This document shows positions 2,874 through 40,694 of a stretch of 64,000 nt of DNA, in pieces (positions within the stretch are counted from its first letter, which is position 1; every line of letters starts with the position of its first letter). The notes under the pieces were generated by a model, which did not search any database, had not been told where the DNA came from, and was given only the letters and a program-made list of their open reading frames with translations. The stretch comes from a virus. Its lineage: Duplodnaviria > Caudoviricetes. The translations under genes and the position numbers were made by a program. The stretch spans positions 1 through 64,000 of the IMG/VR virus record IMGVR_UViG_3300028888_000074. One strand, written 5' to 3'.

Positions 2874-3989
2874 ATGAAAATCACATTAAAAGAAATTACA
2901 ATCGGAGAAGTTGCAAAAGGTTTTGTTGATAACAACGAACAAGGTGTTGTCGGTTATGACGGATTGTTGAATATCCGACCCGCATACCAAAGGGAATTTG
3001 TCTATAAGGACAAACAACGCAATGCGGTCATTGACACGATTATGAAAGGTTTTCCGCTTAATGTTATGTATTGGGCGAAAAATGCAAATGGCACTTATGA
3101 ACTCCTTGATGGTCAGCAAAGAACAATATCTTTCTGCCAATTTGTCAGCGGTTGGTTCTCCGTGACTGACACAAATGGCAATCCGAAGTATTTTCAAAAC
3201 ATGACTGAAAAGGAGCAATCCGATTTCCTTTCATACAAATTGTTCATCTATGTTTGTGATGGGGCAGACAACGAGCGTCTTGATTGGTTTCGCACTATCA
3301 ATATAGCAGGCGAAAAACTGACCGACCAAGAACTTTTGAACGCTAATTATGTCGGTGCTTGGTTGAGCAGCGCAAAACAAAGGTTTTCAAAGACAAATTG
3401 TGTGGCATACCATATTGGCAACAAATATGTCAATGGCAGTCCGATTCGGCAGGAATACCTTGAAACCGCTATTAAATGGGTTTCCGATGGCAAGGTTGCT
3501 GAATACATGGCAGCGCATCAATTTGATGAAAATTCCGATGAATTATACAATCACTACCGCAATGTGATTGATTGGATTGAAAAAACATTCACCACATACC
3601 GAAAGGAAATGAAAGGTTTGGATTGGGGTAAATTGTATAAAACCTATCACAAAAACGAATATGATAGTGAAAAACTTGAAGAACAAGTGAAAGAGTTGAT
3701 GATGAACGATGAGGTCACCGACAAGAAAGGCATCTATGAATATGTGTTGAGTGGAAAGGATGAGTATATCGCACGCAAATTGTCAAAACGGACTTTCTCC
3801 AATGCTGACAAACGAACTGCCTATGAAAGACAAAATGGCATTTGCCCTAAATGCGGTCAGCATCACGAATTTTCCGAAATGGATGGAGACCACATTGTCG
3901 CTTGGTGGAGAGGAGGCAAAACAACACTTGACAACCTTCAAATGCTCTGCAAAAAGTGCAATGGTGTGAAAAGCGGAAAGACTGAATAA
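2874..3989 (+). CDS. DUF262 (ParB/GmrS-like) domain plus C-terminal HNH endonuclease
   Basis: IRPAYQREFVY, LLDGQQRT, FRTINIAG; C-terminal CPKC..DHIVAW..GG.T...NLQMLCKKCN. Confidence 0.85.
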   Translation: MKITLKEITIGEVAKGFVDNNEQGVVGYDGLLNIRPAYQREFVYKDKQRNAVIDTIMKGFPLNVMYWAKNANGTYELLDGQQRTISFCQFVSGWFSVTDTNGNPKYFQNMTEKEQSDFLSYKLFIYVCDGADNERLDWFRTINIAGEKLTDQELLNANYVGAWLSSAKQRFSKTNCVAYHIGNKYVNGSPIRQEYLETAIKWVSDGKVAEYMAAHQFDENSDELYNHYRNVIDWIEKTFTTYRKEMKGLDWGKLYKTYHKNEYDSEKLEEQVKELMMNDEVTDKKGIYEYVLSGKDEYIARKLSKRTFSNADKRTAYERQNGICPKCGQHHEFSEMDGDHIVAWWRGGKTTLDNLQMLCKKCNGVKSGKTE

Positions 3990-4061
3990 CTTTGGCATAC
4001 TTTTTGCATATATGGGAATGTCAGTATATTTATAGAAACAACAATTAAAATTATAATTACT

Positions 4062-4958
4062 ATGGCAAATAACAATTCAAACCTGCACAATGCAAAAACC
4101 GCAAAAAACGATGAGTTTTACACCCAACTTTCCGACATTGAGAAAGAACTGAACAACTACAAGGACTTTTTCAATGGAAAAATCGTTTATTGCAATTGTG
4201 ATGACCCAAGAGAATCCAATTTTTTCAAATTCTTCTCATTGAACTTTGAGAGACTTGGCTTGAAAAAACTCATCACTACGGGGTATAAGAAAGACGGACA
4301 CGGGGTTGTTTTTGTCTATGAGGGTGACAAGAACGGAAATAGAATGGTTGATGATGATGAGGTTGTTGTGACCGAATTGAAAGGCAATGGTAGTTATGAT
4401 TCCGAAGAGTGCATTGAATTTCTAAAAGAATGCGATGTTGTTGTGACCAACCCACCATTTAGTTTGTTCCGTGATTATGTGAAACAACTGATGGACTACA
4501 ATAAGAAATTTTTAATCATTGGAAGCCAAAATGCTATCACATACAAGGAGATTTTCCCTTACATCAAAAATAACCAACTTTGGTTAGGAATGAATTGGGT
4601 GAAAGAGTTTATCCAACCTAACAAGGAAATAAAAAAATTTGGAAACATTTGTTGGTTTACCAATGTGGAAAACAAAAAGAGAAACAAACCTTTGGATTTG
4701 TATAGAAAATACAATCCAACTGACTATCCGAAATACGACAACTATGATGCTATTGAGGTCAGCAAAGTAACTGATATTCCCGAAGATTACAACAGAGTGA
4801 TGGGTGTACCTATTACTTTCCTTGACAAATATTGTCCTACACAATTTCAAATTGTAGGAATTGACCGCTATGTTGAAGATAATCCAAATTATGGACATCG
4901 TTTCAACATCAATGGAAAAGAATGTTACGCACGAATTTTAATTAGGAAACTCGCTTAA
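4062..4958 (+). CDS. Adenine-specific DNA methyltransferase, EcoRI-methylase family
   Basis: AKTAKNDEFYT, VYCNCDDP, catalytic VTNPPFS, MGVPITFLDKY. Confidence 0.88.
   Translation: MANNNSNLHNAKTAKNDEFYTQLSDIEKELNNYKDFFNGKIVYCNCDDPRESNFFKFFSLNFERLGLKKLITTGYKKDGHGVVFVYEGDKNGNRMVDDDEVVVTELKGNGSYDSEECIEFLKECDVVVTNPPFSLFRDYVKQLMDYNKKFLIIGSQNAITYKEIFPYIKNNQLWLGMNWVKEFIQPNKEIKKFGNICWFTNVENKKRNKPLDLYRKYNPTDYPKYDNYDAIEVSKVTDIPEDYNRVMGVPITFLDKYCPTQFQIVGIDRYVEDNPNYGHRFNINGKECYARILIRKLA
4838..4858 (+). repeat. Left 21-bp inverted repeat inside the methylase gene
   Basis: TACACAATTTCAAATTGTAGG is the exact reverse complement of 5042-5062. Confidence 0.9.
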
Positions 4959-7086: not shown

Positions 7087-7122
7087 AGCGTGCCATGCTT
7101 TTATGAGTTTGGCACGCTTTTT
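7087..7122 (+). terminator. Intrinsic terminator whose 3' arm is the sigma54 -24 box (also about 2798, 10105, 15874)
   Basis: AGCGTGCCA...TGGCACGCT followed by TTTT. Confidence 0.6.
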
Positions 7123-7168
7123 GCGTATAGTAATATGTAAACGGATTGTCTAACTTAAACCACCGACA

Positions 7169-7322
7169 ATGAAACCACCTTAATAGCATAGGACATAAAA
7201 ACCAATAAGGCATGGGTTATGCCGAAAAGGGCTGAACATTTAGTAGTGTAGTAGGAGAGTGTACTCCGTCACACGAAAAGCGTTTAGGAGAGTGTACTCC
7301 AACCTACCCTTTATTTTTTTAT
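7169..7322 (+). ncRNA. Candidate structured RNA, copy 1, with micro-ORF MKPP*
   Basis: Downstream of sigma54 motif 7109; about 150-nt homology to 15946-16105; two GGAG-AGTGTA-CTCC hairpins; ends in a U-tract. Confidence 0.55.
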
Positions 7323-7324
7323 AG

Positions 7325-7410
7325 GGACACATTGTCAGTCCTGCCATGACACTTTGTCAGTATGACATTTTTGTCATGTGTGTCATGCCACATTGTCAGT
7401 ATGTGTGACA
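7325..7410. promoter_or_regulatory. TGACA-N3-TGTCA cluster 3
   Basis: Boxes at 7325, 7347, 7363 and 7386 before the sigma54 motif at 7418. Confidence 0.65.
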
Positions 7411-7466
7411 AACAAGTTTGGCATGATTATTGCATGATGTATGGAGAATAATTAAAATTTCCGATT

Positions 7467-7754
7467 ATGAGCAACAATACAAACAAAGAAAAAGCAAAGG
7501 AGTTATTTTACAATTTTTGCAAAGAGAAATCTTGTGATGGTAGAGTTATATGCACATTTTGTCCAAGAGCAAAGGCATTAGCACCATTGATTGAAATGGC
7601 AGAGTGGAAAGAAAAACAAATGATTGAGAGGGCGCAAGATTTTATTGCCACTTGGTTTTATGAACATCCGCATGAACAAAAATTTATATGCTCCGATGAA
7701 TTTGGAAGTATTGACCAATTGCTTGAAAAGTTGAAAAAAGCAATGGAAGAATAA
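7467..7754 (+). CDS. hypothetical protein
   Basis: ORF with sigma54 motif. Confidence 0.75.
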   Translation: MSNNTNKEKAKELFYNFCKEKSCDGRVICTFCPRAKALAPLIEMAEWKEKQMIERAQDFIATWFYEHPHEQKFICSDEFGSIDQLLEKLKKAMEE

Positions 7755-7832
7755 AATTCCCGAATATGAATTTTAGTTTGGCACACTTTTTGCATATAGT
7801 AGTGTGCAGTAATAACAATTAAAATTAGAATT

Positions 7833-8192
7833 ATGAAACAAGCGACAAAATTGGTAGCAGCGAAAAAAGAAATCGGAAGAGTAATGCAGATTGCTGAAAC
7901 GATAAGAACACAAATCAAATACCCGAACAAATATGTGTTTTGCTCTTGGGGAGCACACAACTTCCAATTTGCGGTCACGGATGACAATAACTACCCTGCA
8001 TTGCGTTTCAAGGTGAACGGAATGAAATTCAAGGGTTATGTGCATATCATCTACAACCCTATGGATTACTATGAGATTGAGTTTGTCAGCACTCATGGCA
8101 ATTTGAAGAAGAGAGTGGAAATGTGCTATTTTGACAATTTGCAGGAAATCATTGACAATTATGTTGAGAAAATTCCCGAATATGAATTTTAG
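7833..8192 (+). CDS. hypothetical protein, flanked by a ~32-bp direct repeat
   Basis: AAAATTCCCGAATATGAATTTTAGTTTGGCAC at 7753-7784 and 8169-8200. Confidence 0.78.
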   Translation: MKQATKLVAAKKEIGRVMQIAETIRTQIKYPNKYVFCSWGAHNFQFAVTDDNNYPALRFKVNGMKFKGYVHIIYNPMDYYEIEFVSTHGNLKKRVEMCYFDNLQEIIDNYVEKIPEYEF

Positions 8193-8261
8193 TTTGGCAC
8201 GGTAATTGCGGATAATCAAGTACAATTAACAATATCATTAACAAACAAAAACAACACAATT

Positions 8262-9053
8262 ATGAAAAAATCACAAAACAACAACGCTGAAACTGAAACT
8301 CTTTTTGGTATTACCACATTTACCGATAAAGCAAATGAGTTGTGGTTGGTAACCGACCCAACCGACTATGATGATGAACTCATCGGAACATATCAAGTGG
8401 AATATGATGTCATTGACAAACTCGCCACAAAAGATGAAGCGGTCAAGTATTTGGTTGAAGAGGGCGATGATGGGGAAGATTTGTTGGGCGAAACCGACAA
8501 TCTTGATGTGGATAAGATGAAAGAAGACGGCTATCTTGGGTATTATTATGATATGGGAGATAGTGTATTGATGGTTTGTCTATTTGACAAGTCTATGGCG
8601 AAAAAGATTGACGGAGAAGAGGCAAGGTTTGATGACGATGGAAAAAAATTATATCGTTACCCAATAACTTGGTCGGAAGAGGATGGCGGTTGGTTGGTTG
8701 TGTATGCTCATTCTTACGAGGAGGCAGAACAACTCTATGATGACGGAGAGTATGAAGTTGAAGCCTCCGAAGAGGACAAAGAGTATGTTTGGGTGTATTC
8801 ATCATCCTTTGAGAACGGAGCAAAATTCAAAAACGAATGGGGTGTAAAACTCTTCAAGAATCGTTCTGCTGCGGAAAAATGTTTGAAAGAAGATGCGGAG
8901 ATTAAGAAATGTATGTTCTGTGATGTGTATAACGATGGTGTTATCATTGAAAAAGAAACGGACAAAGTAACAATCTCCACAAAAAACGATGGTTGTGTTG
9001 ATGATGAATGGAAAGGAATGATAACCAAAATGTCAGTCAGCAAGGCAAAATAA
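8262..9053 (+). CDS. hypothetical acidic protein
   Basis: 263-aa ORF with sigma54 motif. Confidence 0.78.
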   Translation: MKKSQNNNAETETLFGITTFTDKANELWLVTDPTDYDDELIGTYQVEYDVIDKLATKDEAVKYLVEEGDDGEDLLGETDNLDVDKMKEDGYLGYYYDMGDSVLMVCLFDKSMAKKIDGEEARFDDDGKKLYRYPITWSEEDGGWLVVYAHSYEEAEQLYDDGEYEVEASEEDKEYVWVYSSSFENGAKFKNEWGVKLFKNRSAAEKCLKEDAEIKKCMFCDVYNDGVIIEKETDKVTISTKNDGCVDDEWKGMITKMSVSKAK

Positions 9054-9141
9054 GTTTGGCACGATAATTGCATATAGTATAATCGGTCAAGGTCTCACAC
9101 CGACATTAAGCGGAGACCACAATTAAAATTTCAATAGTATT

Positions 9142-9510
9142 ATGGCAACAAACAAAATGAATCAAATTGTAAACAACACGAACCTTGAAATCTACAAGGC
9201 GAAAGCGAGAACCATTTTTGCGGAGGCGAAGAACGCATTGGTGAACGATGAAATCACCATGAGCGATTTGCTGAAATTGGACTTGGAATTTGACAAGGCG
9301 GTCATGGGTGTTGTTGAATGTGAGAAGAAAAAGGCGAAACTGAACAATGAGGAGGTTAAGAACAAGAGATTGCTTGACATTGCGAGAGACATCGTGTATG
9401 GCGAAGATGATGAGTGCGATGAGGAATGTGAAAACGAAGAAGATGATACCGATGACAATTCCCATGTGAATGAAGTCTTCGGGATGGTGTTCGGAGCATT
9501 TGGATTCTAA
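9142..9510 (+). CDS. hypothetical protein
   Basis: ORF with sigma54 motif and leader hairpin. Confidence 0.72.
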   Translation: MATNKMNQIVNNTNLEIYKAKARTIFAEAKNALVNDEITMSDLLKLDLEFDKAVMGVVECEKKKAKLNNEEVKNKRLLDIARDIVYGEDDECDEECENEEDDTDDNSHVNEVFGMVFGAFGF

Positions 9511-9664
9511 CGATTGGCAACATGGTGGCGGGGTTGTGTTTGCAATCTTGTCATCGTTTGTTTTATCACGAAACAATAATACGCAACTGCGTACATACAT
9601 TTTGGCATGATTATTGCATATAGGTGAATGACAAATTAAGTAATAACAATTAAAATTCACAATT

Positions 9665-10084
9665 ATGATTACATTTACTATACCATCATTTATTTCCTAC
9701 ACAATCTTCGTGATTGTATTGTCATTCTTAATGTTCATTTCGCTCCACTACATCATTGATGATATAAAAAGCAATAAGAAGTCAAAAAAGAAAATGGTCA
9801 AATCGCCTTTGAAGATTGGTGGAATATATGGAAGAAGACCATTGTATGGTAATGATAATGACCCATTTTCCCCTATTCGTGAGTATGATTATTATGTGGC
9901 AATCCTTGACATAAAACCATCAAGGGATGGAGATTGTGAATACTGCCAATATGTCTTTCTAAATGACAAAATGTCACCATATAGCACTTATTGTAACACT
10001 ACAATTTTGAGCGAAAAAACCAATTACTTTGATGGTTGGGAATATATAAAGGATATTGACTTGAACACCATAAAAATTTCATAA
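9665..10084 (+). CDS. hypothetical membrane-anchored protein
   Basis: N-terminal hydrophobic helix. Confidence 0.72.
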   Translation: MITFTIPSFISYTIFVIVLSFLMFISLHYIIDDIKSNKKSKKKMVKSPLKIGGIYGRRPLYGNDNDPFSPIREYDYYVAILDIKPSRDGDCEYCQYVFLNDKMSPYSTYCNTTILSEKTNYFDGWEYIKDIDLNTIKIS

Positions 10085-10189
10085 TCTTAATTTTAATTGT
10101 TGTCAGCGTGCCACTCCTAATAAGTTTGGCACGCTTTTTGCATATAGCATAATACAATTTAGTATTAACAAATTAAACAAATAGGCAAT

Positions 10190-10738
10190 ATGATAATTAT
10201 ACACATGGACACGCAGCAGGACACACATGTCCTTGATGTGCTTTACAAAGGATTTTCCGAATCGGACAACATCATCATGGTCAATCCGACAAGGGTTGAG
10301 GTTGAGGCAACTCTTAACAAATATCCCAATGAAAATGTCATGTTGATTGGTCATGGCGATTATTTTGGGTTATGGGCAAGTGATAACGACTTTTACAATC
10401 CAACGATGTATGTCATTGACGGGCATAATGTGGACTTGCTGAAAAATAGGGAAATCATTGGTATTTGGTGCTATGCGAGTTATTTTGCAAAAAAGCACAA
10501 ATTGAGAGGTTTTTTCACCTATATGTTTGTGTCAAACCCATCGGAGGCGAAAATGCTCAATTTCGGAGAATATTCCGAAAAATATTGTAATGAGCAGAAT
10601 GTGAAGTTCTGCAACCAAATCAACCAACTGATAACCGAGAATGTCAATATGGCAGATTGGACTGACAAACTGACACACGATGATGTCAATTTTGTCAATT
10701 ACAATTATAAGCATCTTGAATATTTGTACGGATATTAA
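10190..10738 (+). CDS. hypothetical protein
   Basis: ORF with sigma54 motif; LIGHG...IWCYA motif. Confidence 0.75.
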   Translation: MIIIHMDTQQDTHVLDVLYKGFSESDNIIMVNPTRVEVEATLNKYPNENVMLIGHGDYFGLWASDNDFYNPTMYVIDGHNVDLLKNREIIGIWCYASYFAKKHKLRGFFTYMFVSNPSEAKMLNFGEYSEKYCNEQNVKFCNQINQLITENVNMADWTDKLTHDDVNFVNYNYKHLEYLYGY

Positions 10739-10812
10739 AACAATCACTTTGGCACGATAATTGCACATAGTATAGTGACAATTTAGTAATAACAATTAAA
10801 ATTAGAAATTTT

Positions 10813-11178
10813 ATGAAAAAGAACGAAATCACAAAGCAAATCAGCAAGGTCATGGATATGCAGGCGGAGGTTGCCGCAAAAATGGTTTGTGACATCAAAG
10901 ACACTTTGAACAATGATTTTGATGGAAGCATTGATTGGGTGGACTACGAAACCGAAGACGATGAGGTTTGGACACCAACAATGAACTATGTTGACTATTG
11001 GTCATGTACTTGTGAGGAGGGTGTACACATGGAGCAAGTAATGTGCAATGAGGATGGTGAAGTCTATATCACATTGGAAAATGATGAAACCACAAACATC
11101 AATGATTTGAATTTTGAAGACCTCAACACATTATACATTGCAATTGCAAACCTTTGCGAATATCTTGGAAAAGAATAA
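10813..11178 (+). CDS. hypothetical protein
   Basis: ORF with sigma54 motif and leader. Confidence 0.75.
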   Translation: MKKNEITKQISKVMDMQAEVAAKMVCDIKDTLNNDFDGSIDWVDYETEDDEVWTPTMNYVDYWSCTCEEGVHMEQVMCNEDGEVYITLENDETTNINDLNFEDLNTLYIAIANLCEYLGKE

Positions 11179-11239
11179 AGTTTGGCATGGTTATTGTATA
11201 TAGTATGGTGTAGTATTAACAATTAAAATTTCAATTATT

Positions 11240-11938
11240 ATGGCAACAATTGACACAAAAGAAATCAACGAAAGAATAACAAAATATTATTCTCATACAA
11301 GGGAATTGCGTCAAGACATGGTTTCAGCAATCACCAATATGCTGAAAGATATGGGTGGCGAAATCTCGCTTACCGACAAACAATATGACGATACATTGTG
11401 TATTGCCTATGATGGCGGCAATCATGCGGAATACGCTTCCTCCATGTGTGAGGAGGTGGAATCAATCAAAACCTTGCAAGACGAAGATAATTTTTATGTT
11501 GAGGTTGCTGGCGAGGATTACATTGAAAGTCATAGATTGATTTTTGACGATGTGTGCGCTATTTGGGATGTTGTTTCATCAAGATACAACGATTTCAATG
11601 AGAATGTCGGTCAGTACAAAGAGGTTGTTGAAATCGCCAACAAGAATGAACTTAAAATACAAATGAATTTCAGTCTTAATGACGAATTGGATATTGTCAA
11701 ACAATTCGGTGAACCAATTGACCTTGAAACTTTGGAAAATCCCGCCTGCGTTGAGGTTAAAAGTTATTTGTATGTTGATGTCTTGGGTAATCAAACAATT
11801 GCCGAATTAAGAGGTAGTGACGAAAAGTTTTCCAAGTACCAAAACATTGTCGCTAATTTGATGAAAACCAAGAAACCGCAATATCTCATCGGTGCGAAAG
11901 ACGGAATTGTGCAAGGTCTATTGTGGTGCGAGTTCTGA
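11240..11938 (+). CDS. hypothetical protein
   Basis: ORF with sigma54 motif and leader. Confidence 0.78.
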   Translation: MATIDTKEINERITKYYSHTRELRQDMVSAITNMLKDMGGEISLTDKQYDDTLCIAYDGGNHAEYASSMCEEVESIKTLQDEDNFYVEVAGEDYIESHRLIFDDVCAIWDVVSSRYNDFNENVGQYKEVVEIANKNELKIQMNFSLNDELDIVKQFGEPIDLETLENPACVEVKSYLYVDVLGNQTIAELRGSDEKFSKYQNIVANLMKTKKPQYLIGAKDGIVQGLLWCEF

Positions 11939-12013
11939 TTTTTGGCACGATTATTGCATATAACACAATACAAACAATTAAAATTAATATTAACAAATTA
12001 AATTAAAATTATT

Positions 12014-12775
12014 ATGGGACAATATTATAAAGCGTGTTTCGTAAACACAAAAAAGGACAAAGTTGAAGAATATTTTGAATCTTGGGACACAAATAGTGGT
12101 TCTAAATTAATGGAACATTCGTATGTTGGCAATAAATTTGTGATGAATGTCACCTACAAAATGATTAATTCACCGAAGAGACTTGTTTGGGCGGGAGACT
12201 ATGGGGATGAAATTGTTGGAGAGGATAATTTCTATGACCTCACAAATAATGCGGAAAAATCAGAACCATTTGAAATTGATATGATGAAACATGTACTTGA
12301 TGCAAACACCATCTATATCAATCACGACAAAAAGGAATGGTTTGACCTCAAAAAGCAGACAATTCCCGCTATGAGAGGTTGGAGTGGAATTGTACACCCT
12401 CTCCCAATACTAACCGCTGACGGAAATGGTCGTGGAGGTGGAGACTATGGTGGTGCGAACATGGAACTTGTCGGCACTTGGAAAGGTGATTTAATTGAGA
12501 TTTCAGATACCATCCCCGACAATTATATTGAGATTGAGCCGTGGTTTACGGAAATGTCACAAAAAGAAATTGATGAATATTTCAAAGAGTTGGAAAACCC
12601 AAAAAAGAAATACACAATCAAAATCAATTATACAACATCGGAAGAATTTGTTGTAGAGGCACACACCGAAGAAGAAGCTTTAACACTTGTGGAGGATATG
12701 AATCCCGATGAAACACAAGTTTATGAGAACCTTACCCTTGACGGAAGTCCGCATGTGATTTTTTGTGAAGATTAA
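12014..12775 (+). CDS. phage hypothetical protein (MGQYY..KLMEHSY..WAGDY..HPLPILT.DGNGRGGGDY)
   Basis: ORF with sigma54 motif. Confidence 0.8.
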   Translation: MGQYYKACFVNTKKDKVEEYFESWDTNSGSKLMEHSYVGNKFVMNVTYKMINSPKRLVWAGDYGDEIVGEDNFYDLTNNAEKSEPFEIDMMKHVLDANTIYINHDKKEWFDLKKQTIPAMRGWSGIVHPLPILTADGNGRGGGDYGGANMELVGTWKGDLIEISDTIPDNYIEIEPWFTEMSQKEIDEYFKELENPKKKYTIKINYTTSEEFVVEAHTEEEALTLVEDMNPDETQVYENLTLDGSPHVIFCED

Positions 12776-12816
12776 TTTGTTGCTTTTTCATAGTTTGTAA
12801 GTTTTAATTAGTTATT

Positions 12817-12909
12817 TGTCATGGGTGTGTCATTTTGGCACACCTTTGTCATTTTTGTCATGTGACATTATGTACTGACAATTTGGCAAACATACATGAC
12901 ATTATGGCA
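12817..12909. promoter_or_regulatory. TGACA-N3-TGTCA cluster 4
   Basis: Boxes including 12876 and 12897 before the sigma54 motif at 12919. Confidence 0.6.
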
Positions 12910-12982
12910 TTTATAAGTTTGGCACGCTTTTTGCATATAGGGTAGTGACAATTTAGTATTAACAATTAAAATTAGAATTATT

Positions 12983-13579
12983 ATGATTAAGATTGAAATT
13001 CAAGCAGAAGATTATCATATTGCAGATGCAATGAGTGATTTGGTTATGAGAATTGAAAATGGAAACCTTTTGGATTCGGTGTATTTGGATAGAGCGGATA
13101 GTGTTACCATCCGTGATGACAATTATACTGCCACATTGTCAAAGGTAAAGCAAATTGAGAAACCTAAAATGTCAGCACACAAGTCGGAACTTATTGACGA
13201 AATCAAACTCTACGCAGGTCTTGAATATTCAATTGATGACTTGTGGAATGGTGAGGATTACGAAACCGAAGACGGAATGGTCAAGGAAGATGGTGTAGAA
13301 AGATTTACCAATGATTGGAAACACATCTTTGAAACCTATGAGGAAATTGATGAAGATGTTTTGGAAAACATCTTGGAGGCTGTCAAGAAACACCCTCTCG
13401 TCACCACAAAGAGAAATGTCCTTTTGGAAGACGATGAAACCGATTTTGGTGGCATATCGTTCATCGGTGAAACCCTGCTTGACTTCATGCTTTCAGTCCA
13501 CATGCCTTTCACCTCCACAAAGGAAGAAATTGACAAGGCATTGAAAGAATGTGGCATAAGACCACTTTTTGAAAAATAG
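12983..13579 (+). CDS. hypothetical protein
   Basis: ORF with sigma54 motif and leader. Confidence 0.78.
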   Translation: MIKIEIQAEDYHIADAMSDLVMRIENGNLLDSVYLDRADSVTIRDDNYTATLSKVKQIEKPKMSAHKSELIDEIKLYAGLEYSIDDLWNGEDYETEDGMVKEDGVERFTNDWKHIFETYEEIDEDVLENILEAVKKHPLVTTKRNVLLEDDETDFGGISFIGETLLDFMLSVHMPFTSTKEEIDKALKECGIRPLFEK

Positions 13580-13644
13580 TTTGGCATGGTATTTGCATAT
13601 AGCATAGTGACAAATCAGTATTAACAATTAAAATTAGAATTATT

Positions 13645-14028
13645 ATGACAATCAACATTCCCCAAAACACCTATCAATCTCCAACCACCATCAATCCCGA
13701 AATGGTAGAACTAATCTGCAAGGTATTCATTCGTGGTGATGAATATAAGGCTACATCATGCAATATTATTGCGGCAGATTATTGTATTGACACATATTCC
13801 GTTAAATATCCTCGTTTCTATAATGGATATAGAAGTGGGATTGGGGAAAAACACGAAGAGAGAAAATTCAACGGAGCGGAAATGAATGCGGCTTTTAATG
13901 CACTAATCCAAGCAGGTTATTATATGTTCAAAACCTACGATAAGGGTGTTGTATATAAGTGCAAAAGAGTGCCTTATGATAATGACGGATGGCAGAGAGT
14001 GTATTCATTTGACACTCAAATTGACTAA
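13645..14028 (+). CDS. hypothetical protein
   Basis: ORF with sigma54 motif and leader. Confidence 0.75.
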   Translation: MTINIPQNTYQSPTTINPEMVELICKVFIRGDEYKATSCNIIAADYCIDTYSVKYPRFYNGYRSGIGEKHEERKFNGAEMNAAFNALIQAGYYMFKTYDKGVVYKCKRVPYDNDGWQRVYSFDTQID

Positions 14029-14062
14029 TTTAAATAACAATTAAAATTAAAATCATTAAATC

Positions 14063-14278
14063 ATGGATAAGAGAAAGATTGAAACTGCCGATGGCATTGT
14101 ATTATGCAAGACCGCATTTGACACCGACACAAATACCGATTACATTGAGTTCTACCTTCACAATGGCGAGGAGGAAAGCGTGTTCCCTTATGACTATGTT
14201 GGTGAAAGCACAATGATGAAAGACTTTTCAGCATACACCGATAGTGAATTGGTTGGTCTCTATTATGAGAGTGTATAA
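14063..14278 (+). CDS. hypothetical protein
   Basis: ORF with leader. Confidence 0.68.
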   Translation: MDKRKIETADGIVLCKTAFDTDTNTDYIEFYLHNGEEESVFPYDYVGESTMMKDFSAYTDSELVGLYYESV

Positions 14279-14346
14279 AACTTTGGCACACTTTTTGCAT
14301 GTAGTATAGAGACAATTTAGTATTAACAATTAAAATTAAAAAGATT

Positions 14347-15153
14347 ATGGAAAAGAACATCAATGAAATCATTTTATTCGCAAACATTAAGGGTGAAAAT
14401 GGTCGTGAAGTCCGTGAGGCAAGAATCGTTGAACTCAACGAAAGACCTTGTTATTACTATTTCAATAAATCAACAAGCAAGTTAGATTATGTTCGTGGTT
14501 GTGGATTTTGTTTCACGCTTGAAATCGCAGGTATTGGCAAGGTATCGTCATACAAATTCTTAAATGACTACAAAGGTGGTTTATATAAGACATTAAACCT
14601 TGCATTACAAAACGATGAAGACTATACATTATTTAGGAACGGACATAATGAAAACATACTTAATATCGGTTGTATTGCCGATATATACTATGATGATTTG
14701 AATCTGACACATCCTTGCACTACATTGGAGTTTGAGTATGTGCGTGTGAATAGTTATGTCAATACTACTCATTTCCGTTTGAAACCAATCAGTTATTATT
14801 GGGATGGTACGAAGACCCAACGCTATGAAATTAAGTGGAAATTCCAATTTGACCTCATTGATAACAAGATTAAAATGTATGAGGGTGGTCGTAATTATGA
14901 AGACAAATTAGGTAAGTTGTATGCCACAAAGGAAATGTGTGAGAACGACAACAAACCGACCATTGTGCGATTTGACAACAAGCCAAAAGAAGTTGAAAAG
15001 ATTGTGACCTTTGAAATCACATTGGGGGTGAAAGTTGATTCTTCAAGTAATGAAGAGGATGCCATTTCCGCAGCAATGTATAAGATTAGAACCTGCGATG
15101 ATGAAGTCCTATTTGAATCTTGTGTCTCCTGCACAACCTATCCAAACAAATAA
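14347..15153 (+). CDS. hypothetical protein
   Basis: 268-aa ORF with sigma54 motif. Confidence 0.78.
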   Translation: MEKNINEIILFANIKGENGREVREARIVELNERPCYYYFNKSTSKLDYVRGCGFCFTLEIAGIGKVSSYKFLNDYKGGLYKTLNLALQNDEDYTLFRNGHNENILNIGCIADIYYDDLNLTHPCTTLEFEYVRVNSYVNTTHFRLKPISYYWDGTKTQRYEIKWKFQFDLIDNKIKMYEGGRNYEDKLGKLYATKEMCENDNKPTIVRFDNKPKEVEKIVTFEITLGVKVDSSSNEEDAISAAMYKIRTCDDEVLFESCVSCTTYPNK

Positions 15154-15246
15154 CCATAATACGCAACTGCGTACATACACTTTGGGTCAAGGTGCGCCGC
15201 CCGAATCAAAGTGCGCACCATAACAATTAATTAAAATTTGAATAAT

Positions 15247-15558
15247 ATGAACCAAGACAATATGCCCATCGCAACAAAATTGGCGGAGGTTTTACTTAAA
15301 AAACAAGATGGTGATTTCACACCGATTACCTTTGACTGCCTAATCCGTGTGAATGGAAACTACAATACCGAAAGTGTGACCATGTGCTATTGCACGGAAG
15401 AGGAGATGGAAACCCTTATGGCGAACCCATCGTTTGACGATACCATTTTCTTCTACATTGTGGTTGGCGAGAACCCTATCAGCAACCTTTTCAACGAGGA
15501 GGATTTTGAAATCGTTGATGTATATGAGAATAGTGTGCAGGATGTTCTTTGGATATAA
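15247..15558 (+). CDS. hypothetical protein
   Basis: First ATG after the leader. Confidence 0.7.
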   Translation: MNQDNMPIATKLAEVLLKKQDGDFTPITFDCLIRVNGNYNTESVTMCYCTEEEMETLMANPSFDDTIFFYIVVGENPISNLFNEEDFEIVDVYENSVQDVLWI

Positions 15559-15580
15559 CAACAACTAAAAACAATAGAGT

Positions 15581-15841
15581 ATGGACTATATCATTATCAA
15601 AGAAGACAAGACACCGCTTTGTTTTGATGACAATTCAATTGTTGTCTATGGGGACAAGCATGATGCACTTGAAGACCTTGCGGAAAACGACTTCGGTCTT
15701 GTTGAGATTGAATATGACGGGAATGCCGCAACATTGTATTTTGATGGCGAAATCGTTGGTTGGTTTGAGTATGACACAAATGACGAAGACGATTACCAAT
15801 CAAAATTGAAAGAATCCGTTTCAATGATGTTTTTGTCATAA
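15581..15841 (+). CDS. hypothetical acidic protein
   Basis: ORF in array. Confidence 0.68.
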   Translation: MDYIIIKEDKTPLCFDDNSIVVYGDKHDALEDLAENDFGLVEIEYDGNAATLYFDGEIVGWFEYDTNDEDDYQSKLKESVSMMFLS

Positions 15842-15945
15842 TATCAGTAAATAGTTTGTTTTAATTGTCGCTTGCGTGCCATGCCGATGAGGTTTGGCAC
15901 GCTTTTTGCATATACCAATATGCAAACCAATTAATAATTTAAATT

Positions 15946-16105
15946 ATGATTAGACCACCTTAATAGCATAGGACATAGTATCAGTAAGGCATGGGTTGTG
16001 CCGACAAGGGCTGAACATTGGATGAAAGTGTAGTAGGAGAGTGTACTCCGTTACACTTAAAATGGGTAGGAGAGTGTACTCCGTCACACCCTTTATTTTT
16101 TTTAT
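15946..16105 (+). ncRNA. Candidate structured RNA, copy 2, with micro-ORF MIRPP*
   Basis: Downstream of sigma54 motif 15894; homologous to 7169-7322. Confidence 0.55.
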
Positions 16106-30441: not shown

Positions 30442-31740
30442 TTGACATACTCCCACGAATAAATTCGTGGGATTCTTGACTTAAACATGCACGCTGATGG
30501 CGTTGACGCCAGCAGCATTTGCACTCGCCAATTCGTCGATGCCCCGACGAAGTATATTTCTCGCTGCATTCAAGTCCCTGTCGTTTGTCCTTCCGCAATG
30601 CGGGCAGACCCACTCCCTGTCCTTCAGCGACAGGTTCTCATTGACAAACCCGCACTCACAGGTTTTGCTTGACGGATAGAACCTGTCAATCTTGTGCAGG
30701 TTGCATCCGTATTTCGACGCAACCATTCCGAGGATTTCCACGAACCTTCCGTGCGCCAGGTCGTTCATTTTCCTTCCCCACCTCCTCGACATTCCAGTCA
30801 GGACAAGGTCCTCGATGAATATGTTGTCATATGAGCGGCATATCGCATGGGCAAGTTTCCACTGCCAGTCGGTGCGTGAATTCACAACCTTTTCATGACA
30901 TCTGTCAAGGTCCATGCGTTTCCGTCTTCTGTTGTTCGAGCCACGCTTTGCGTTGCTCAGCTTTCTGGACGCCTTTCTTAATGATGCTAGGTTGTGTTTA
31001 AGGAACTGCGGGTTCTCTACCACCTGTCCGTCGGAGAGCGTGAGATAGGTTTTCAGACCGAAGTCAATGCCGACGGATGCACCATTGTGTGTCTTTCCGT
31101 ATCTTTTGGCTTCGGCGTCGGTGACCACACTGATGTAGTAGTCGCCAAGCGGTGACCGCTTGACCGACAACCTCTTCACTTCTCCCTTGAGCGGACGGCT
31201 CAGCGAGAACTTGAATGTTGTTTTCAGTTTGTTTATTGTGAATTTGTTGCCTTTCAGTTTGAATCCTCCCTGTTTGAAAACCACGGACGACATGTCCGAG
31301 AACTTCTTGAATTTCGGGGGTCTCTTGGACTTGTGGGTGAAGAACCTCTGGTATGCATAGTCGAGGCGTTCAATCACCTCCTGCACACTTTGAGAGTGAA
31401 GGTTCTGCATCTTGTACCTCTTGGCGAAGTGTGTCTTCATCCTGTTTCCGCCTACATACTTGCCGTACATTTCATAGTACTTCTTCTGGAGGGCAAGGCA
31501 ATGGTTCCATACAAAGCAAGCCTCACGCATCAGGGTTTCGATGCGTTTGTTTCTTTTGGATGCGTATAGCTTGTACTTGTATGTCAGCATTTTATTGTTA
31601 TGTTTATAACAATAAATAGTCCGTTATGTGTAAAAAGCACCACGAGCGTTGTTTTTTTTTGTTTTTTAATTTTAAAAATGTATAATTAAAAATAACTGGA
31701 TTCATCCAACGACTGAAGTCGTTGGTTTTCTCCAGTGTAA
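30442..31740 (-). mobile_element. IS200/IS605-family TnpB-only element A
   Basis: Near-identical to 60146-61445; subterminal hairpins; right end TCAA; TTATGAT 5' of the left end; no tnpA. Confidence 0.88.
30481..31590 (-). CDS. tnpB: RNA-guided endonuclease TnpB
   Basis: GIDFG, IEDL, DRDLNAA RuvC triad; CECG and CPHC Zn finger. Confidence 0.92.
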   Translation of the reverse strand: MLTYKYKLYASKRNKRIETLMREACFVWNHCLALQKKYYEMYGKYVGGNRMKTHFAKRYKMQNLHSQSVQEVIERLDYAYQRFFTHKSKRPPKFKKFSDMSSVVFKQGGFKLKGNKFTINKLKTTFKFSLSRPLKGEVKRLSVKRSPLGDYYISVVTDAEAKRYGKTHNGASVGIDFGLKTYLTLSDGQVVENPQFLKHNLASLRKASRKLSNAKRGSNNRRRKRMDLDRCHEKVVNSRTDWQWKLAHAICRSYDNIFIEDLVLTGMSRRWGRKMNDLAHGRFVEILGMVASKYGCNLHKIDRFYPSSKTCECGFVNENLSLKDREWVCPHCGRTNDRDLNAARNILRRGIDELASANAAGVNAISVHV

Positions 31741-36609: not shown

Positions 36610-38003
36610 TTCTAGCAAGAAGTCTCCCTCCTTTAGGCGGGGGTTGAATTGCTCTTTGTTATTTTATGGTTATTATACACTTTTTTTTGGAAAAACCAAA
36701 TACCTTTTGTAATACACCAAACTATTTATACATACATGTTAAAAGCGTTCAAATACAGACTGTTGCCAGATACCGAACAGGCCGAGTACATCAAACGTAC
36801 CATCGGCTCGGCCAGGTTTGTCTACAACTGGCTGTTGAATGACTACAAGGAACAGCTTGACATTTATAACCAGAATAACAAGCAAGGAAACAAACCAATA
36901 ATCAAGGAAGTCACTGAAGCCAAAAAGGACAATTATTTCCTGTCTGGCGTGGATTCATTGGCCTTGGCCAATGCCAAGCTCAACCTGAACACGGCATTGA
37001 GGAACTTCTTCGACTCACGGAATGGAAAAAGAAAGGGCAGGAAAATCGGGTTCCCGAAACCACACAAGAAAACGAAATGCAGATGGAGTTACACAACGAA
37101 CAACCAGGGAGGAAACATAAGGGTTGAAAACGGGCACATCTGTCTACCGAAAATAAAGTGGGTCAAACTAATACAGCACAGGGAACTGGAAGGAGTGATA
37201 CGAAGCGCAACCGTTTCCATGGAACGGAACGGCGATTTCTATGTCTCGGTTCTCTGCAACGTGGAACAAGCAAAGAAACAAAGACAAAAACCAGATACAA
37301 TCAAGGTCGTCGGCCTTGATATGTCATACACCGAATTCGTTGTCGATTCCGACACGTTGTCTGACGATACGAAACCCAAGTACGTCAGGCAATACAGGAG
37401 TAATGAGAAGAAACGGTCAAGGCTTAACCGAGCCATGTCAAGAAAGGCAATCGGTTCCAGGAACAGGGACAAAGCCAGAGTCAGGCTTGCAAAGCTTGAC
37501 AGGCACATTGCAAACTGCCGAACTGATTTCGCCCACAAGATGAGCAGGCACTATGCTGAGAACTATGACGTTATTGTAATAGAAGACATAGACATGCAGT
37601 CGCAAGCCAGGAAAAAGATGAGGGGACACGGAAAGTCAGCCAACGACTTGGGCTGGGGACAGTTCAAGTCTTACCTGAAATACAAATGCGAGATATATGG
37701 GTCGCTTTTTGTTGTTGCGGACAAATGGTTTGCAAGTTCGAAGACATGTAACCTTTGCGGAACGGTCAACCACGGATTGACGTTGTCCGACAGGGAGTGG
37801 ACATGTCCAGAATGCGGAGCAACACTACATCGTGACTACAATGCGGCATGTAACCTCAGGGACTGGTATTTTGAAAGATATAATACCGTAGGGACTACGG
37901 GAATTCACGCTTGTGGAGATTCAGCCGATACAGCAGGGGGAACCCTGCTGCAAGCTGGGTCGTTGAAACAAGAAGCACCTTCCTTCAGGGAGGGGTAGTT
38001 CAC
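36610..38003 (+). mobile_element. IS200/IS605-family TnpB-only element C (left end approximate)
   Basis: Left hairpin at 36614-36653; right hairpin followed by TTCAC. Confidence 0.75.
36736..37998 (+). CDS. tnpB: RNA-guided endonuclease TnpB
   Basis: MLKAFKYRL start; GLD, IEDI, HRDYNAA; Zn finger CNLC/CPEC. Confidence 0.9.
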   Translation: MLKAFKYRLLPDTEQAEYIKRTIGSARFVYNWLLNDYKEQLDIYNQNNKQGNKPIIKEVTEAKKDNYFLSGVDSLALANAKLNLNTALRNFFDSRNGKRKGRKIGFPKPHKKTKCRWSYTTNNQGGNIRVENGHICLPKIKWVKLIQHRELEGVIRSATVSMERNGDFYVSVLCNVEQAKKQRQKPDTIKVVGLDMSYTEFVVDSDTLSDDTKPKYVRQYRSNEKKRSRLNRAMSRKAIGSRNRDKARVRLAKLDRHIANCRTDFAHKMSRHYAENYDVIVIEDIDMQSQARKKMRGHGKSANDLGWGQFKSYLKYKCEIYGSLFVVADKWFASSKTCNLCGTVNHGLTLSDREWTCPECGATLHRDYNAACNLRDWYFERYNTVGTTGIHACGDSADTAGGTLLQAGSLKQEAPSFREG

Positions 38004-38039: not shown

Positions 38040-39236
38040 TCAAACTTTTAATTTCAATTGCATTCTAGCCATGTTTATCTCTGTGGAATCACCCATATGC
38101 TTTCCAGCATCGTCAGAAATCTTGATGCAATTTTCCCAATCTGAATTTCTATCAAGACGGCACCCTTTTAATTTCATAACAATGTTAGCTGGACTCCAAG
38201 ATACACCCGTATCATTTGTTAAGTTAGTACCTATACCGAAACTTACATTACATCTACCTTTAAACTCATCATTAATACGTTTTGCCTTATCAAAGTCAAG
38301 AGAATTACTGAAAACAATAAGTTTTGATTTAGGGTCAATTCCGAACGACCTAATCTTATTCAATATCTTAATACCAACTTCAATTTCATCACCGCTATCC
38401 TGTCTGAACCCAGACAATAGATGAGCTTGTTTTTTAGTCAGTGTGTTGAGAAACGAATCTGTTGTATATGTATCAACTAATGCGGTTCCAAGGTCACCTT
38501 GATATACATCAATCCAATCTTCAAGACTGAGATAGTTTGCACGTTTATAACCAAATGTAGCTCCATGAAACATAACCCATTCGTGAGGGAACGTCCCAAT
38601 AGGCTTCATATTGTATTTCATAGCGAAGTAAACATTTGATGTTCCAGCACATGTTTTAGACTCACTCTTGATTTGTTTAATAACAAATTCCTGTACATCA
38701 GCACTATATCTTCTTCTTGTTCCAAATTCACTGAAAACGATATTGTTTTTATTTGCTAACATAAGTTTATCGTGTAGATTGTTACAAATAGTGAAGATAC
38801 TTGGTTCCTCATTTAATGATTCCTCTTTTAGTTTGTTTCTAATTTCAGAATAAATTGATAAAACCATAATTTCATAAAGCGTAACTTTATACAGTTTATC
38901 AATTGCCTTGCAATGAAATACATTGTCTTCATCAAACCAAAAATCCATTTTGTCAGGATTAAATCTAAATGTTGACAACCATTCCCAATATGTTGCTGGA
39001 ATATATGGAATATTTTTTATACACCAGCACATTTCATCATCAGTTAATGAAAGTTGCTTTACTTCATTGATTTGTTCATTAAACATTTCAATAAATTTAT
39101 CCTTCAATTCTGGTTCCCAAGACTCTTCACGTCTGTCGGTAAATTCAAATATACCCTGTGCATTCGGGTATAGTTTAAAATAAGCATAGCTTGTGCTAAA
39201 TTTATAAAGGTCTGTGTCTAAAATACTTTTAACCAT
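38040..39236 (-). CDS. pncB: Nicotinate phosphoribosyltransferase
   Basis: SILDTDLYK, EFGTRRR, GTSN, GTFPHEW, RQDSGD, FGIGTNLTND, KISDD. Confidence 0.92.
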   Translation of the reverse strand: MVKSILDTDLYKFSTSYAYFKLYPNAQGIFEFTDRREESWEPELKDKFIEMFNEQINEVKQLSLTDDEMCWCIKNIPYIPATYWEWLSTFRFNPDKMDFWFDEDNVFHCKAIDKLYKVTLYEIMVLSIYSEIRNKLKEESLNEEPSIFTICNNLHDKLMLANKNNIVFSEFGTRRRYSADVQEFVIKQIKSESKTCAGTSNVYFAMKYNMKPIGTFPHEWVMFHGATFGYKRANYLSLEDWIDVYQGDLGTALVDTYTTDSFLNTLTKKQAHLLSGFRQDSGDEIEVGIKILNKIRSFGIDPKSKLIVFSNSLDFDKAKRINDEFKGRCNVSFGIGTNLTNDTGVSWSPANIVMKLKGCRLDRNSDWENCIKISDDAGKHMGDSTEINMARMQLKLKV

Positions 39237-39309: not shown

Positions 39310-40694
39310 TAACGTGCAAGAAAGCCCACTGCTTTAGCTGTGGGATGAATTGCACTCTATTATAATATACATTTTTTTTGAAAAAACCAAAACTTTTTCA
39401 AAAAACACACTATTTATAAGTACATGATACAGTACAGGACATATACAATCAGGCTGTTTCCGAACATGGAGCAGGAACAGGAACTCAAAAACCTGTCCCT
39501 TGCAAGGAACATTTTGTATAACATGCTTGTCGGAATCGAACAGAAAACCTATGAGGAGACAAGGAAAATAAAAACCGAGTTCGACCTAGACAGGGATATC
39601 ACTGTATTGCGAAAAGAACACCCGTTCCTGACCAAACTCAACTCCAAGGCGAGCCAGAGAGTCGCCAAGGAGGTGTATTCAGCATACAAATCGTTCTTCA
39701 GCCTTGTCAAAAAGGACAAGACGGCGAAACCGCCTAAGCAAATGAAAGACGTGAATAGGTTCCATACAGTGGCATACAACCAGACTGGCTGGAAGTTTAT
39801 CAGCGAGAACACATTAAAGTTGAACGGTTTAATCGTGAACTACAAGGGAATCCCTGGCATGGATTACAAGTCCATGGCGGTTAAGGAAGTCAAACTGAAA
39901 CGTGTGAATGGAAAGTATCTGCTGGACTTGAGTGTGGCAAACAGTGTGGAGGAAAAACAAACAATAACCAATGAAAACAAGGTGCTTGCGATAGACCTCG
40001 GCCTAAAGAACCTTTGCAACGGCGTGGACAACCTCGGCTCTGTTGTAGTGTTACCAAACAAAGCCAGGAAAATAAACAGGTACTTCAGGAAACAGATATC
40101 GGCTGTACAGTCGAAGATGGACAGGTGCATCAAGGGCAGCAGCCGACACTGCAAGCTCAAAAAAACGAAAAGGAAACTCTATAACAGGAGGAATGCACAG
40201 ATAAAACAGACTCTGCATATCCAGAGTAAAAAACTGGTGGATATGAACTACAAGACGATTGTAGTTGGTGACTTGAGTGTGAAGAAGCTGATGGATAAGG
40301 GGAGCAACAAGCTGACCAAGACTTCCAGAAGCTTCGGCGAATCATCGATAGCCACATTCATGGAATACCTTGCATACAAGTGCCAGAACAGCAACACCGA
40401 GCTGGTGACAATCAACGAGATGTGGACAACACAGCAGAACTGTCTGACTGGCAAGCTGTTCAAGGAGAAGGTCGGACTGTCCGACAGGACTGTCATGCTT
40501 TCGGATTCCATAGAGATAGACCGTGATTTGAACGCCGCAATCAACATAATGAAGCGGTACGAGCAGAATCACCTTGCGCTGCTGACAGCGCCGCTGGATG
40601 TTTCCAGTGTGGTCAACAGGCACAACCTGTTGACAGATACGTGTTCTTGAAACAGGTCAAGAACCCCACGGTTTTAACCGTGTGAGTATGTCAG
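39310..40694 (+). mobile_element. IS200/IS605-family TnpB-only element D, inserted in the 3' end of pncA
   Basis: End hairpins; removing 39310-40694 restores an in-frame pncA tail. Confidence 0.8.
39424..40650 (+). CDS. tnpB: TnpB-family protein (rearranged RuvC-II type)
   Basis: AIDLG, VVGDL, INEMWTT, DRDLNAA. Confidence 0.85.
   Translation: MIQYRTYTIRLFPNMEQEQELKNLSLARNILYNMLVGIEQKTYEETRKIKTEFDLDRDITVLRKEHPFLTKLNSKASQRVAKEVYSAYKSFFSLVKKDKTAKPPKQMKDVNRFHTVAYNQTGWKFISENTLKLNGLIVNYKGIPGMDYKSMAVKEVKLKRVNGKYLLDLSVANSVEEKQTITNENKVLAIDLGLKNLCNGVDNLGSVVVLPNKARKINRYFRKQISAVQSKMDRCIKGSSRHCKLKKTKRKLYNRRNAQIKQTLHIQSKKLVDMNYKTIVVGDLSVKKLMDKGSNKLTKTSRSFGESSIATFMEYLAYKCQNSNTELVTINEMWTTQQNCLTGKLFKEKVGLSDRTVMLSDSIEIDRDLNAAINIMKRYEQNHLALLTAPLDVSSVVNRHNLLTDTCS

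Follow-up and report, generated by a model that had tools for sequence, protein, structure and literature searches.

Repeated identical hairpin modules in variable number are characteristic of the sponge RNAs CsrB and RsmZ and of the decoy-like pseudo-ToxI and RNA anti-CRISPRs of phages, and the phage RNAs act early on host factors. Other compact phage elements, HK022 put and lambda nut, occur in at least two copies per genome just 3' of early promoters, and consist of a short single-stranded box and/or two stem-loops. Translation can also govern the fate of an RNA. Pro-Pro is a site of slow peptide-bond formation and EF-P dependence, and proline before a stop codon slows termination; in polyproline or Pro-stop leaders (mgtP and mgtL of Salmonella, TnaC of E. 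coli), the slowed ribosome couples the state of translation to the fate of the RNA. A ribosome or 30S subunit held at the 5' end, as in the stalled ribosome of ermC, the STAB-SD of cryIIIA, and the polypurine leader of phage SP82, protects the downstream RNA. Lambda barI and barII and synthetic minigenes are very short open reading frames (ORFs) with good initiation, present more than once in the case of early phage transcripts, and their abortive or slow translation can sequester tRNA (PMC2490762; for lambda bar, PMC1170711 as cited there). In Bacteroidota, rpsU and rpsR have almost the sole strong Shine-Dalgarno (SD) sequences, and that of rpsU is read by ribosomes that lack bS21 (PMC9976891, PMC13000453). 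The element described here resembles each of these systems in part. It occurs twice in the window, i.e., the first 64 kb of the 115,947-base IMG/VR virus record IMGVR_UViG_3300028888_000074 (estimated completeness, 32%), and has a structured RNA core together with a Pro-Pro mini-ORF that is predicted to be translated, which is an unusual combination.

Both copies are on the + strand, at approximately 7136-7320 (copy 1) and 15921-16103 (copy 2), and they are alignable across the whole unit, with 84% BLAST identity between 7174-7320 and 15946-16105; their leader sequences are unlike. The shared order of parts is a terminator fused to a sigma54 promoter, a leader, the mini-ORF, a hairpin (hairpin A), the motif AAGGGCTGAACATT, and a pair of GGAGAGTGTACTCC hairpins at a spacing of 33 nucleotides (nt), after which come a T-tract, a cluster of TGACA/TGTCA, and the promoter that follows. 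The initial annotation had placed the two copies and their common context in this way, had regarded them as a structured RNA of a family that it did not recognize, and had proposed covariation as a check. Re-reading of the sequence gave the same placement, and the element was found to be strand-specific, to have its own promoter, and to carry compensatory changes in three helices. The family also matched nothing described: the 64-kb window gave no hit to Rfam release 15 at gathering thresholds, relaxing the limit to E values of up to 5 for three copy-holding loci yielded chance snoRNA or U12 matches far below threshold, ARAGORN found no tRNA or tmRNA gene in the window, and a BLAST search of three family members against 50,697 GenBank phage records returned no match. 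The element belongs to a real family of small structured RNA genes, not described before, that is found in giant rumen and gut phages of Bacteroidota. The best explanation, to which we assign a probability of roughly 45%, is that each copy constitutes an independent early gene of the phage, encoding a structured RNA of ~185 nt, whose modules would bind a partner and whose mini-ORF would park a ribosome as an accessory.

The structure was assessed in an alignment (A4) of 12 related sequences, partly paralogues, that were fitted to the model. Paired cells made up 96.9% of this alignment and nine pairs, located in helices 1-3, had changed on both sides, whereas none of 500 shuffles reached any of the five measures and slid registers paired at 36-61%. 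Hairpin A (GGCAT GGGTT ATGCC at 7209-7223 in copy 1; GGCAT GGGTT GTGCC with one U-G wobble at 15988-16002 in copy 2) was the clearest helix, being 100% paired with compensatory changes in three of four pairs. Seven stems were observed for it, namely GGCAU/AUGCC, GGCAU/GUGCC, GGCA/UGCC, GGAGC/GCUCC, GGAA/UUCC, GAGA/UCUC, and GUUGU/ACAAC, the last belonging to a minimal form of the RNA described below. The extension stem of hairpin 1 changed from AAGUGUAG/UUACACUU to AAUGUAG/CUACAUU, and the domain of this hairpin was closed by an additional stem (CAUU/AAUG or AAUAC/GUAUU). Helices of a structured RNA are thus held by compensatory changes within these 12 related, model-fitted sequences. The GGAG/CUCC stems showed zero variation across both hairpins and are uninformative on pairing, and the outer pairs of hairpin 2, a stem that was tried as a proposal, were kept in 72% only. 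A pseudoknot between the loop (GUGUA) and the tail (UACAC) was rejected because the loops of a 361-kb relative are AGUAUA while its tails stay GUCACAC.

In copy 1, module 1 (7246-7274) has an outer stem GTGTAG/GTCACAC that encloses GGAG-AGTGTA-CTCC (7254-7267), and module 2 (7284-7320) contains GGAGAGTGTACTCC (7287-7300) and the tail AACCTAC (7301-7307) followed by CCC. In copy 2, the stem AAGTGTAG/TTACACTT of module 1 (16026-16058) encloses the same hairpin (16036-16049), and module 2 (16065-16103) consists of GGAGAGTGTACTCC (16069-16082) with the outer pairs GGGT/ACCC. Each module opens with an A-rich linker (AAAAUGGR). The two loops change together, both being AGUGUA in most copies of the sigma54 lineage and both AGUAUA in the 361-kb phage and in one copy of a second lineage. 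The number of modules is one (the minimal form and a goat variant), two (most copies), or two plus a decayed third (two copies); the goat variant, from a goat-gut DNA assembly, is a relative of copy 2 without exactly one 33-nt module (16032 joined to 16066). The motif AAGGGCTGAACATT, located at 7227-7240 and 16006-16019, is invariant and single-stranded, and its portion GGGCTGAACA is kept in all three lineages. A presumed likeness of GGGCUGAACA to the 3' region of 16S rRNA or rrn boxA was too weak to be used, as was that between the hairpin and either the sarcin-ricin loop or type I-F CRISPR repeats.

The palindromic stems would also fit an element that acts at the DNA level, such as a set of palindromes bound by protein, an origin, or a site of packaging, and GAGTATACTC in the AGUAUA variants is indeed a perfect 10-bp palindrome that lies among enhancer-like TGACA repeats. 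However, the palindrome is imperfect in the window copies (GAGTGTACTC), and the G-U wobble pairs in helices 1-3 favor pairing of RNA rather than DNA. The strict orientation relative to promoters and genes, and an SD sequence, an ATG, and synonymous codon changes in the mini-ORF, likewise speak for an RNA; hence, a DNA-level function is very improbable.

Homologues were sought with a covariance model derived from five copies (R1) and with scans for exact patterns, and were found in large uncultured phages of three lineages. One of these, the sigma54 lineage, carries one to three copies per genome, including one in a complete phage of 361,445 bases and three each in a 14-kb contig and a 30-kb contig; further copies occur on several rumen metagenome contigs. 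The second lineage is represented by two copies on a 47.7-kb contig (47,677 bases; JALFSR010000100.1) of a metagenome-assembled genome (MAG) labelled "Clostridiales bacterium." This contig contains 36 Bacteroidota-type promoters (TTTG-N17-23-TAnnTTTG) on one strand and no sigma54 motifs, and encodes two EcoRI-type methylases, DUF262-HNH, GmrSD, RadC, ParB, and T5orf172, of which genes for an EcoRI-type methylase and DUF262-HNH also occur in the window. The RNA was detected in none of 150 genomes of the MAG's family. The contig looks like the early region of a related large Bacteroidota phage that was mis-binned, rather than a bacterial locus. The third lineage has the minimal form, found once in a complete phage of 298,833 bases (the 299-kb phage) and in three partial records of that phage. 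It runs from a Bacteroidota promoter through the GUUGU/ACAAC hairpin, GGGCUGAACA, and one hairpin GGGAGAGUAUACUCC with the tail AACCUAC to a short U-run. The minimal form scored 25 bits only with the long model and could not be aligned to the long forms by MAFFT, and a pattern search took the place of a core-only model. It was accepted as a relative because it shares six loop and seven tail letters with the other members, outside the letters that were searched for.

The distribution was examined among relatives of the phage, for which 50 large-phage loci were fetched via a sigma-factor-like protein and 48 records were searched with the covariance model and a loose pattern. The RNA was present in two of the 48 records, both already known, and absent from the other 46; among related records that were at least 90% complete, two of 10 had it. 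The RNA is a sporadic accessory among related phages, which supports its interpretation as an accessory gene. A sporadic distribution, tandem identical modules in variable number, the A-rich linker at each module start, and an early region rich in anti-restriction-type genes would also be expected of an RNA that imitates a host defence RNA, such as a type III antitoxin or a CRISPR repeat, and soaks up the toxin or Cas protein in the manner of pseudo-ToxI or Racr RNAs. This special case of a trans-acting RNA is distinctly unlikely. None of the Rfam families, including antitoxin RNAs, was matched, and a scan for two hairpins 10-40 nt apart in one genome from each of 185,579 species recovered a single locus, i.e., the phage contig in the MAG, with no host locus (CRISPR-array spacing of >40 nt is outside that scan). 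In addition, the ~33-nt tandem modules were not accompanied by an adjacent toxin-like gene, with no endoribonuclease toxin found there by Pfam, and the 5' domain would remain unexplained by mimicry.

Each copy appears to be an independent transcription unit. The sigma54-type motif TGGCACG-N4-TTGC occurs 16 times in 1-17.3 kb of the window, in all cases on the + strand, against 0.03 expected. At both copies, TGGCACGCTTTTTGC (7110-7124 and 15895-15909) is a predicted -24/-12 element (TGGCAC-N5-TTGC), and the 3' arm of the preceding gene's terminator doubles as its -24 part. The terminator hairpins comprise GCGTGCCA (7088-7095) and TGGCACGC (7110-7117) followed by T5 in copy 1 (7088-7117), and arms at 15874-15881 and 15895-15902 in copy 2 (15874-15902). 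From the usual -12 spacing, transcription would start at ~7135-7137 and ~15920-15922, respectively, and it would probably end at or near the T-tract (TTTATTTTTTT at 7310-7320; 16092-16103 in copy 2). In three terminator hairpins of the array (7088-7124, 10098-10141, and 15874-15909), the 3' arm also provides the -24 element for the following sigma54-type promoter; these fusions split the array into blocks, and the RNA follows two of the three. An imperfect palindrome with a G-T mismatch, TTGCGTAT-AGTA-ATATGTAA, spans -12/+1 in copy 1 (7121-7140), and TTGCATAT-ACCA-ATATGCAA spans the -12 element and the predicted start in copy 2 (15906-15925). Such a palindrome was present at both RNA promoters, whereas the sigma54 promoters inspected at 1286, 10127, and 12920 lacked it, and it may be an operator that serves the RNA genes alone.

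Every lineage has its own promoter in front of the RNA in constant orientation, i.e., the sigma54 type in the window and TTTG-N19-TAnnTTTG in the phages of the MAG contig and the 299-kb genome. A separate promoter also precedes the following gene in all three lineages (the next sigma54-type motifs in the window are at 7419 and 16201). This arrangement bears on the possibility of a cis-acting leader, either a put- or nut-like modifier of RNA polymerase or a Pro-Pro-sensing attenuator, that would regulate transcription beyond the T-tract into the gene block downstream. Behind a strong terminator/promoter fusion, each copy is transcribed before any other feature and stands at the head of a gene block, and its 3' hairpin with the T-tract is weak and non-canonical, making partial read-through plausible. 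The two to three copies per genome in the early region, with two stem-loops each, recall put and nut, and leader ORFs with consecutive prolines are known attenuator sensors. On the other hand, the following gene always has a promoter of its own (three lineages, two promoter types), and the genes 3' of the copies are unrelated small ORFs that differ between copies and lineages, for which Pfam searches of the flanking ORFs gave nothing. Furthermore, the terminator/promoter fusion at 10127 heads a block without the element, and the mini-ORF, which the minimal form lacks, is separated from the T-tract by >100 nt. The RNA has no sequence likeness to put or nut, and it differs from them in having a T-tract, a separate next promoter, and a mini-ORF. 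The mgtP/mgtL and TnaC ORFs, which share with it a short Pro-Pro or Pro-stop frame, are in the leader of the controlled gene and act via alternative hairpins or a masked Rho site. Neither inspection by eye nor RNAalifold, both comparisons at the level of sequence, revealed a conserved alternative structure in which the ORF region pairs with the 3' hairpin. A cis-acting leader is consequently unlikely, although it deserves serious attention.

Pairings around the 3' end were also considered. Pairing of AAGGG with the 3' CCCUU was rejected, since one relative has CAC there with GGG unchanged. The sequence CCC-TTTATTTTTTT-ATAGGG around the T-tract (7308-7326; ~2360-2379 in locus L003) becomes CAC...GTG in one relative, a change that is compensatory since the CAC is matched by GTG 3' of the T-tract; this pairing and hairpin are lost in the 361-kb phage. 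At the opposite end, the copy-1-type leader (7141-7171) contains a short hairpin, AUUGUC...GACAAU, that ends right at the start codon of the mini-ORF and in which CGG/CCG is replaced by CUGAU/AUCAG in the 361-kb phage. This hairpin could gate initiation.

The mini-ORF of copy 1 is ATG AAA CCA CCT TAA followed by TAG (7169-7186; MKPP, double stop), and that of copy 2 is ATG ATT AGA CCA CCT TAA followed by TAG (15946-15966; MIRPP, double stop) preceded by a leader (AATTATG) like those of ordinary SD-less genes; neither window copy has an SD sequence. Within the sigma54 lineage, an ATG is in frame with CCN CCN and two stop codons in all 10 distinct sequences, although their leaders belong to two unrelated classes and the ATG is located zero, one, or two codons upstream (MPP, MKPP, or MIRPP). 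The variable sites of the 12-nt block are third positions only (CCA/CCG, CCT/CCA, and TAA/TAG): orthologues of copy 1 encode MKPP with CCA CCT or CCG CCA, and one relative's version of copy 2 reads CCA CCA TAG TAG. The frames of the MAG lineage are ATG AGA AGT CCA CCA TGT TAA (MRSPPC) and ATG AGA GAC CCA CCA AAA ACA TAG (MRDPPKT). Each ATG is 4 nt behind AAAGGAGG, a strong SD sequence of 9-10 nt at the extreme 5' end (AGAAAGGAGG and AAAGGAGGU; loci L093 and L094, 1495-1530), in a contig where 34 of the 36 genes are without any SD-like sequence. AAGGAGG occurs at three sites in this contig, and only the two at the mini-ORFs precede a start codon. In total, an in-frame ATG was found across five leader contexts.

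An in-frame start, an initiation signal, and codon-preserving substitutions are thus present, as expected of a translated short ORF, and translation of Met-x-x-Pro-Pro is predicted to be a selected feature of two lineages. The weight of the mini-ORF derives from its conservation in homologues and not from its rarity, as M-x(0-3)-P-P-stop occurs five times in the 116-kb record against ~1.3 expected. The initial annotation had described a Pro-Pro-stop micro-ORF and had named loss of its frame in homologues as a test. The part of this claim that concerns a read frame is supported by the ATG in five leader contexts, the synonymous and stop-to-stop changes, and the SD sequences of the MAG lineage, and the frame is kept in both the sigma54 and MAG lineages. 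In contrast, Pro-Pro-stop as such is not conserved, because the MAG lineage has PPC-stop and PPKT-stop and the minimal form is ORF-less. Pro-Pro is the conserved element, with the stop directly after it specific to the sigma54 lineage. Since the minimal homologue has no ORF, the mini-ORF is considered an accessory to a smaller RNA core.

The mini-ORF could alternatively be the effector itself, as a minigene similar to lambda bar, in which heavy early translation of M-x-P-P ties up ribosomes, EF-P, or release factor, or sheds peptidyl-tRNA(Pro), and the 3' part only stabilizes and ends the transcript. Such a minigene would account for the conservation of the frame and of Pro-Pro in two lineages, for the good initiation signals, including a 9-10 nt SD sequence unique in its contig, and for multiple early copies, and minigenes of 2-8 codons do sequester tRNA as peptidyl-tRNA (PMC2490762; lambda bar, PMC1170711 as cited there). 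However, bar is AUG-AUA-stop, without Pro-Pro or a conserved structured RNA downstream, and the best-conserved parts of the phage RNA are in its 3' core, which survives without the ORF in the 299-kb phage; its survival weakens this explanation. A role of the core as stabilizer leaves its invariant loops and their concerted change unexplained, and the phage itself needs those ribosomes and common Pro codons. A minigene effector is therefore rather unlikely.

Under the preferred reading of a trans-acting early RNA, transcription would begin at the RNA's own sigma54-type promoter overlapping the terminator of the previous gene. The working part would be the core common to all lineages, which consists of the variable-sequence hairpin A, the invariant GGGCUGAACA, and one to three tandem modules of ~33 nt, each with an invariant GGAG-AGURUA-CUCC hairpin. 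The modules may serve as repeated binding sites of a single partner, which is most likely a protein, and the RNA would then act in trans as a decoy or sponge; instead or in addition, the single-stranded motif might pair with a host RNA. The mini-ORF, M-x(0-2)-P-P, would load a ribosome at the extreme 5' end, and because Pro-Pro bond formation and Pro-stop termination are slow, the ribosome should dwell on Pro-Pro, directly followed by the stop codon in the window copies. A dwelling ribosome would shield the 5' end or couple the lifetime and folding of the RNA to the state of translation, as in ermC and STAB-SD. The MAG-lineage copies, with a very strong SD sequence at the extreme 5' end, are similar to these stabilizers, which are found in Firmicutes, whereas Bacteroidia ribosomes normally ignore SD sequences (PMC7797042, PMC9976891).

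Three functions had been proposed initially, namely a protein sponge, a ribosome trap, and a translation-coupled attenuator, and the sponge best accommodates the invariance of the loops, the concerted way in which they change, and the differing number of modules. The hairpin motif is also restricted to the elements, as a search for operator sites in three genomes found none outside them. The RNA shares repeated modules and variable copy number with CsrB/RsmZ and the phage decoys, but it has no Rfam similarity to them, its GGA is in the stem and not in the loop, and a cognate host locus was not found in the species scan. An RNA that traps or selects ribosomes is improbable; in this case, the Pro-Pro ORF would park a host ribosome, the modules would hold the ribosome or a translation factor, and a subpopulation of ribosomes would thereby be withdrawn or re-programmed by the phage early in infection. 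Parking in the MAG lineage would use an extended, rpsU-like SD sequence readable only by the bS21-free ribosomes of Bacteroidia. The AGAAAGGAGG and AAAGGAGGU sequences in an otherwise SD-less contig resemble those of rpsU and rpsR, but the window copies have no SD sequence and a search of four related phage records for a bS21 gene found none; a link of the MAG-lineage SD to bS21-free ribosomes is speculation.

Several observations weigh against a stand-alone, trans-acting RNA. No flanking proteins are conserved between lineages. The complement of the single-stranded motif had no site in the 116-kb phage record, and no excess over control was found for it in the MAG. The alignment is small, with its 12 sequences partly paralogues and fitted to the model, and single-sequence folds were no stabler than shuffles (z of -0.29 and +0.67); the RNAalifold consensus on five close copies was ruled by A/U-tract pairings and was judged untrustworthy. 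The role of the ORF is uncertain in view of the minimal form. As a terminator, the 3' hairpin with its T-tract is non-canonical (T-tract of 7-8, invariant stem of 4 bp, spacer of 3-9 nt; no call in a simple scan), and thus read-through into the next unit is possible. Two sheep-gut RNA libraries are assembled contigs that cover the flanking genes and the whole region, from which ends, strand, and abundance are not readable. One sheep-gut RNA run had gaps over the elements, which were left uninterpreted.

The stretch was present in metagenome sequencing runs from sheep, goat, and bovine guts, and its source is a large phage with a host among the rumen Bacteroidota. An SD-like sequence precedes seven of the 128 long ORFs in the record, and adenine is enriched at -3, -6, and -12 to -15, a pattern as seen in Bacteroidia, whose ribosomes ignore SD sequences (PMC7797042, PMC9976891, PMC13000457). 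The early region encodes DNA methylases, a DUF262-HNH nuclease, and NAPRTase (NAD salvage). A DUF262(GmrSD_N)-HNH gene adjoins an EcoRI-type methylase gene both in the window (2874-4958) and in the MAG-lineage phage (locus L095, 14863-17308). Nicotinate phosphoribosyltransferase and an RlaP-type nucleotidyltransferase are encoded at 38040-39236(-) and 46148-47332(+), and the former fits NAD+ synthesis genes reported in gut jumbo phages (PMC11662467). Five genes for TnpB (IS605 OrfB/Cas12f-like) are located at 30481-31590(-), 36649-37998(+), 39424-40650(+), 54738-56072(-), and 60297-61406(+); those at 30481 and 60297 have near-identical Pfam scores and look like duplicates.

To our knowledge, very few non-coding RNAs have been described from Bacteroidota phages, and we are aware of almost nothing on host takeover by giant phages of the gut and rumen. 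The family provides a compact and testable object for this question, with a core of ~75 nt, invariant modules of varying number, and a Met-x-Pro-Pro frame at the 5' end in two lineages. The strong SD sequence of the MAG lineage is of a kind that ribosomes of the host group normally ignore and reserve for the autoregulation of ribosomal proteins (PMC9976891, PMC13000453). If ribosome parking is true, it would represent a new viral route by which an RNA is stabilized or regulated, or by which a special population of ribosomes is targeted. Should the hairpins be decoys, they would point to an unknown host factor that is important for infection.

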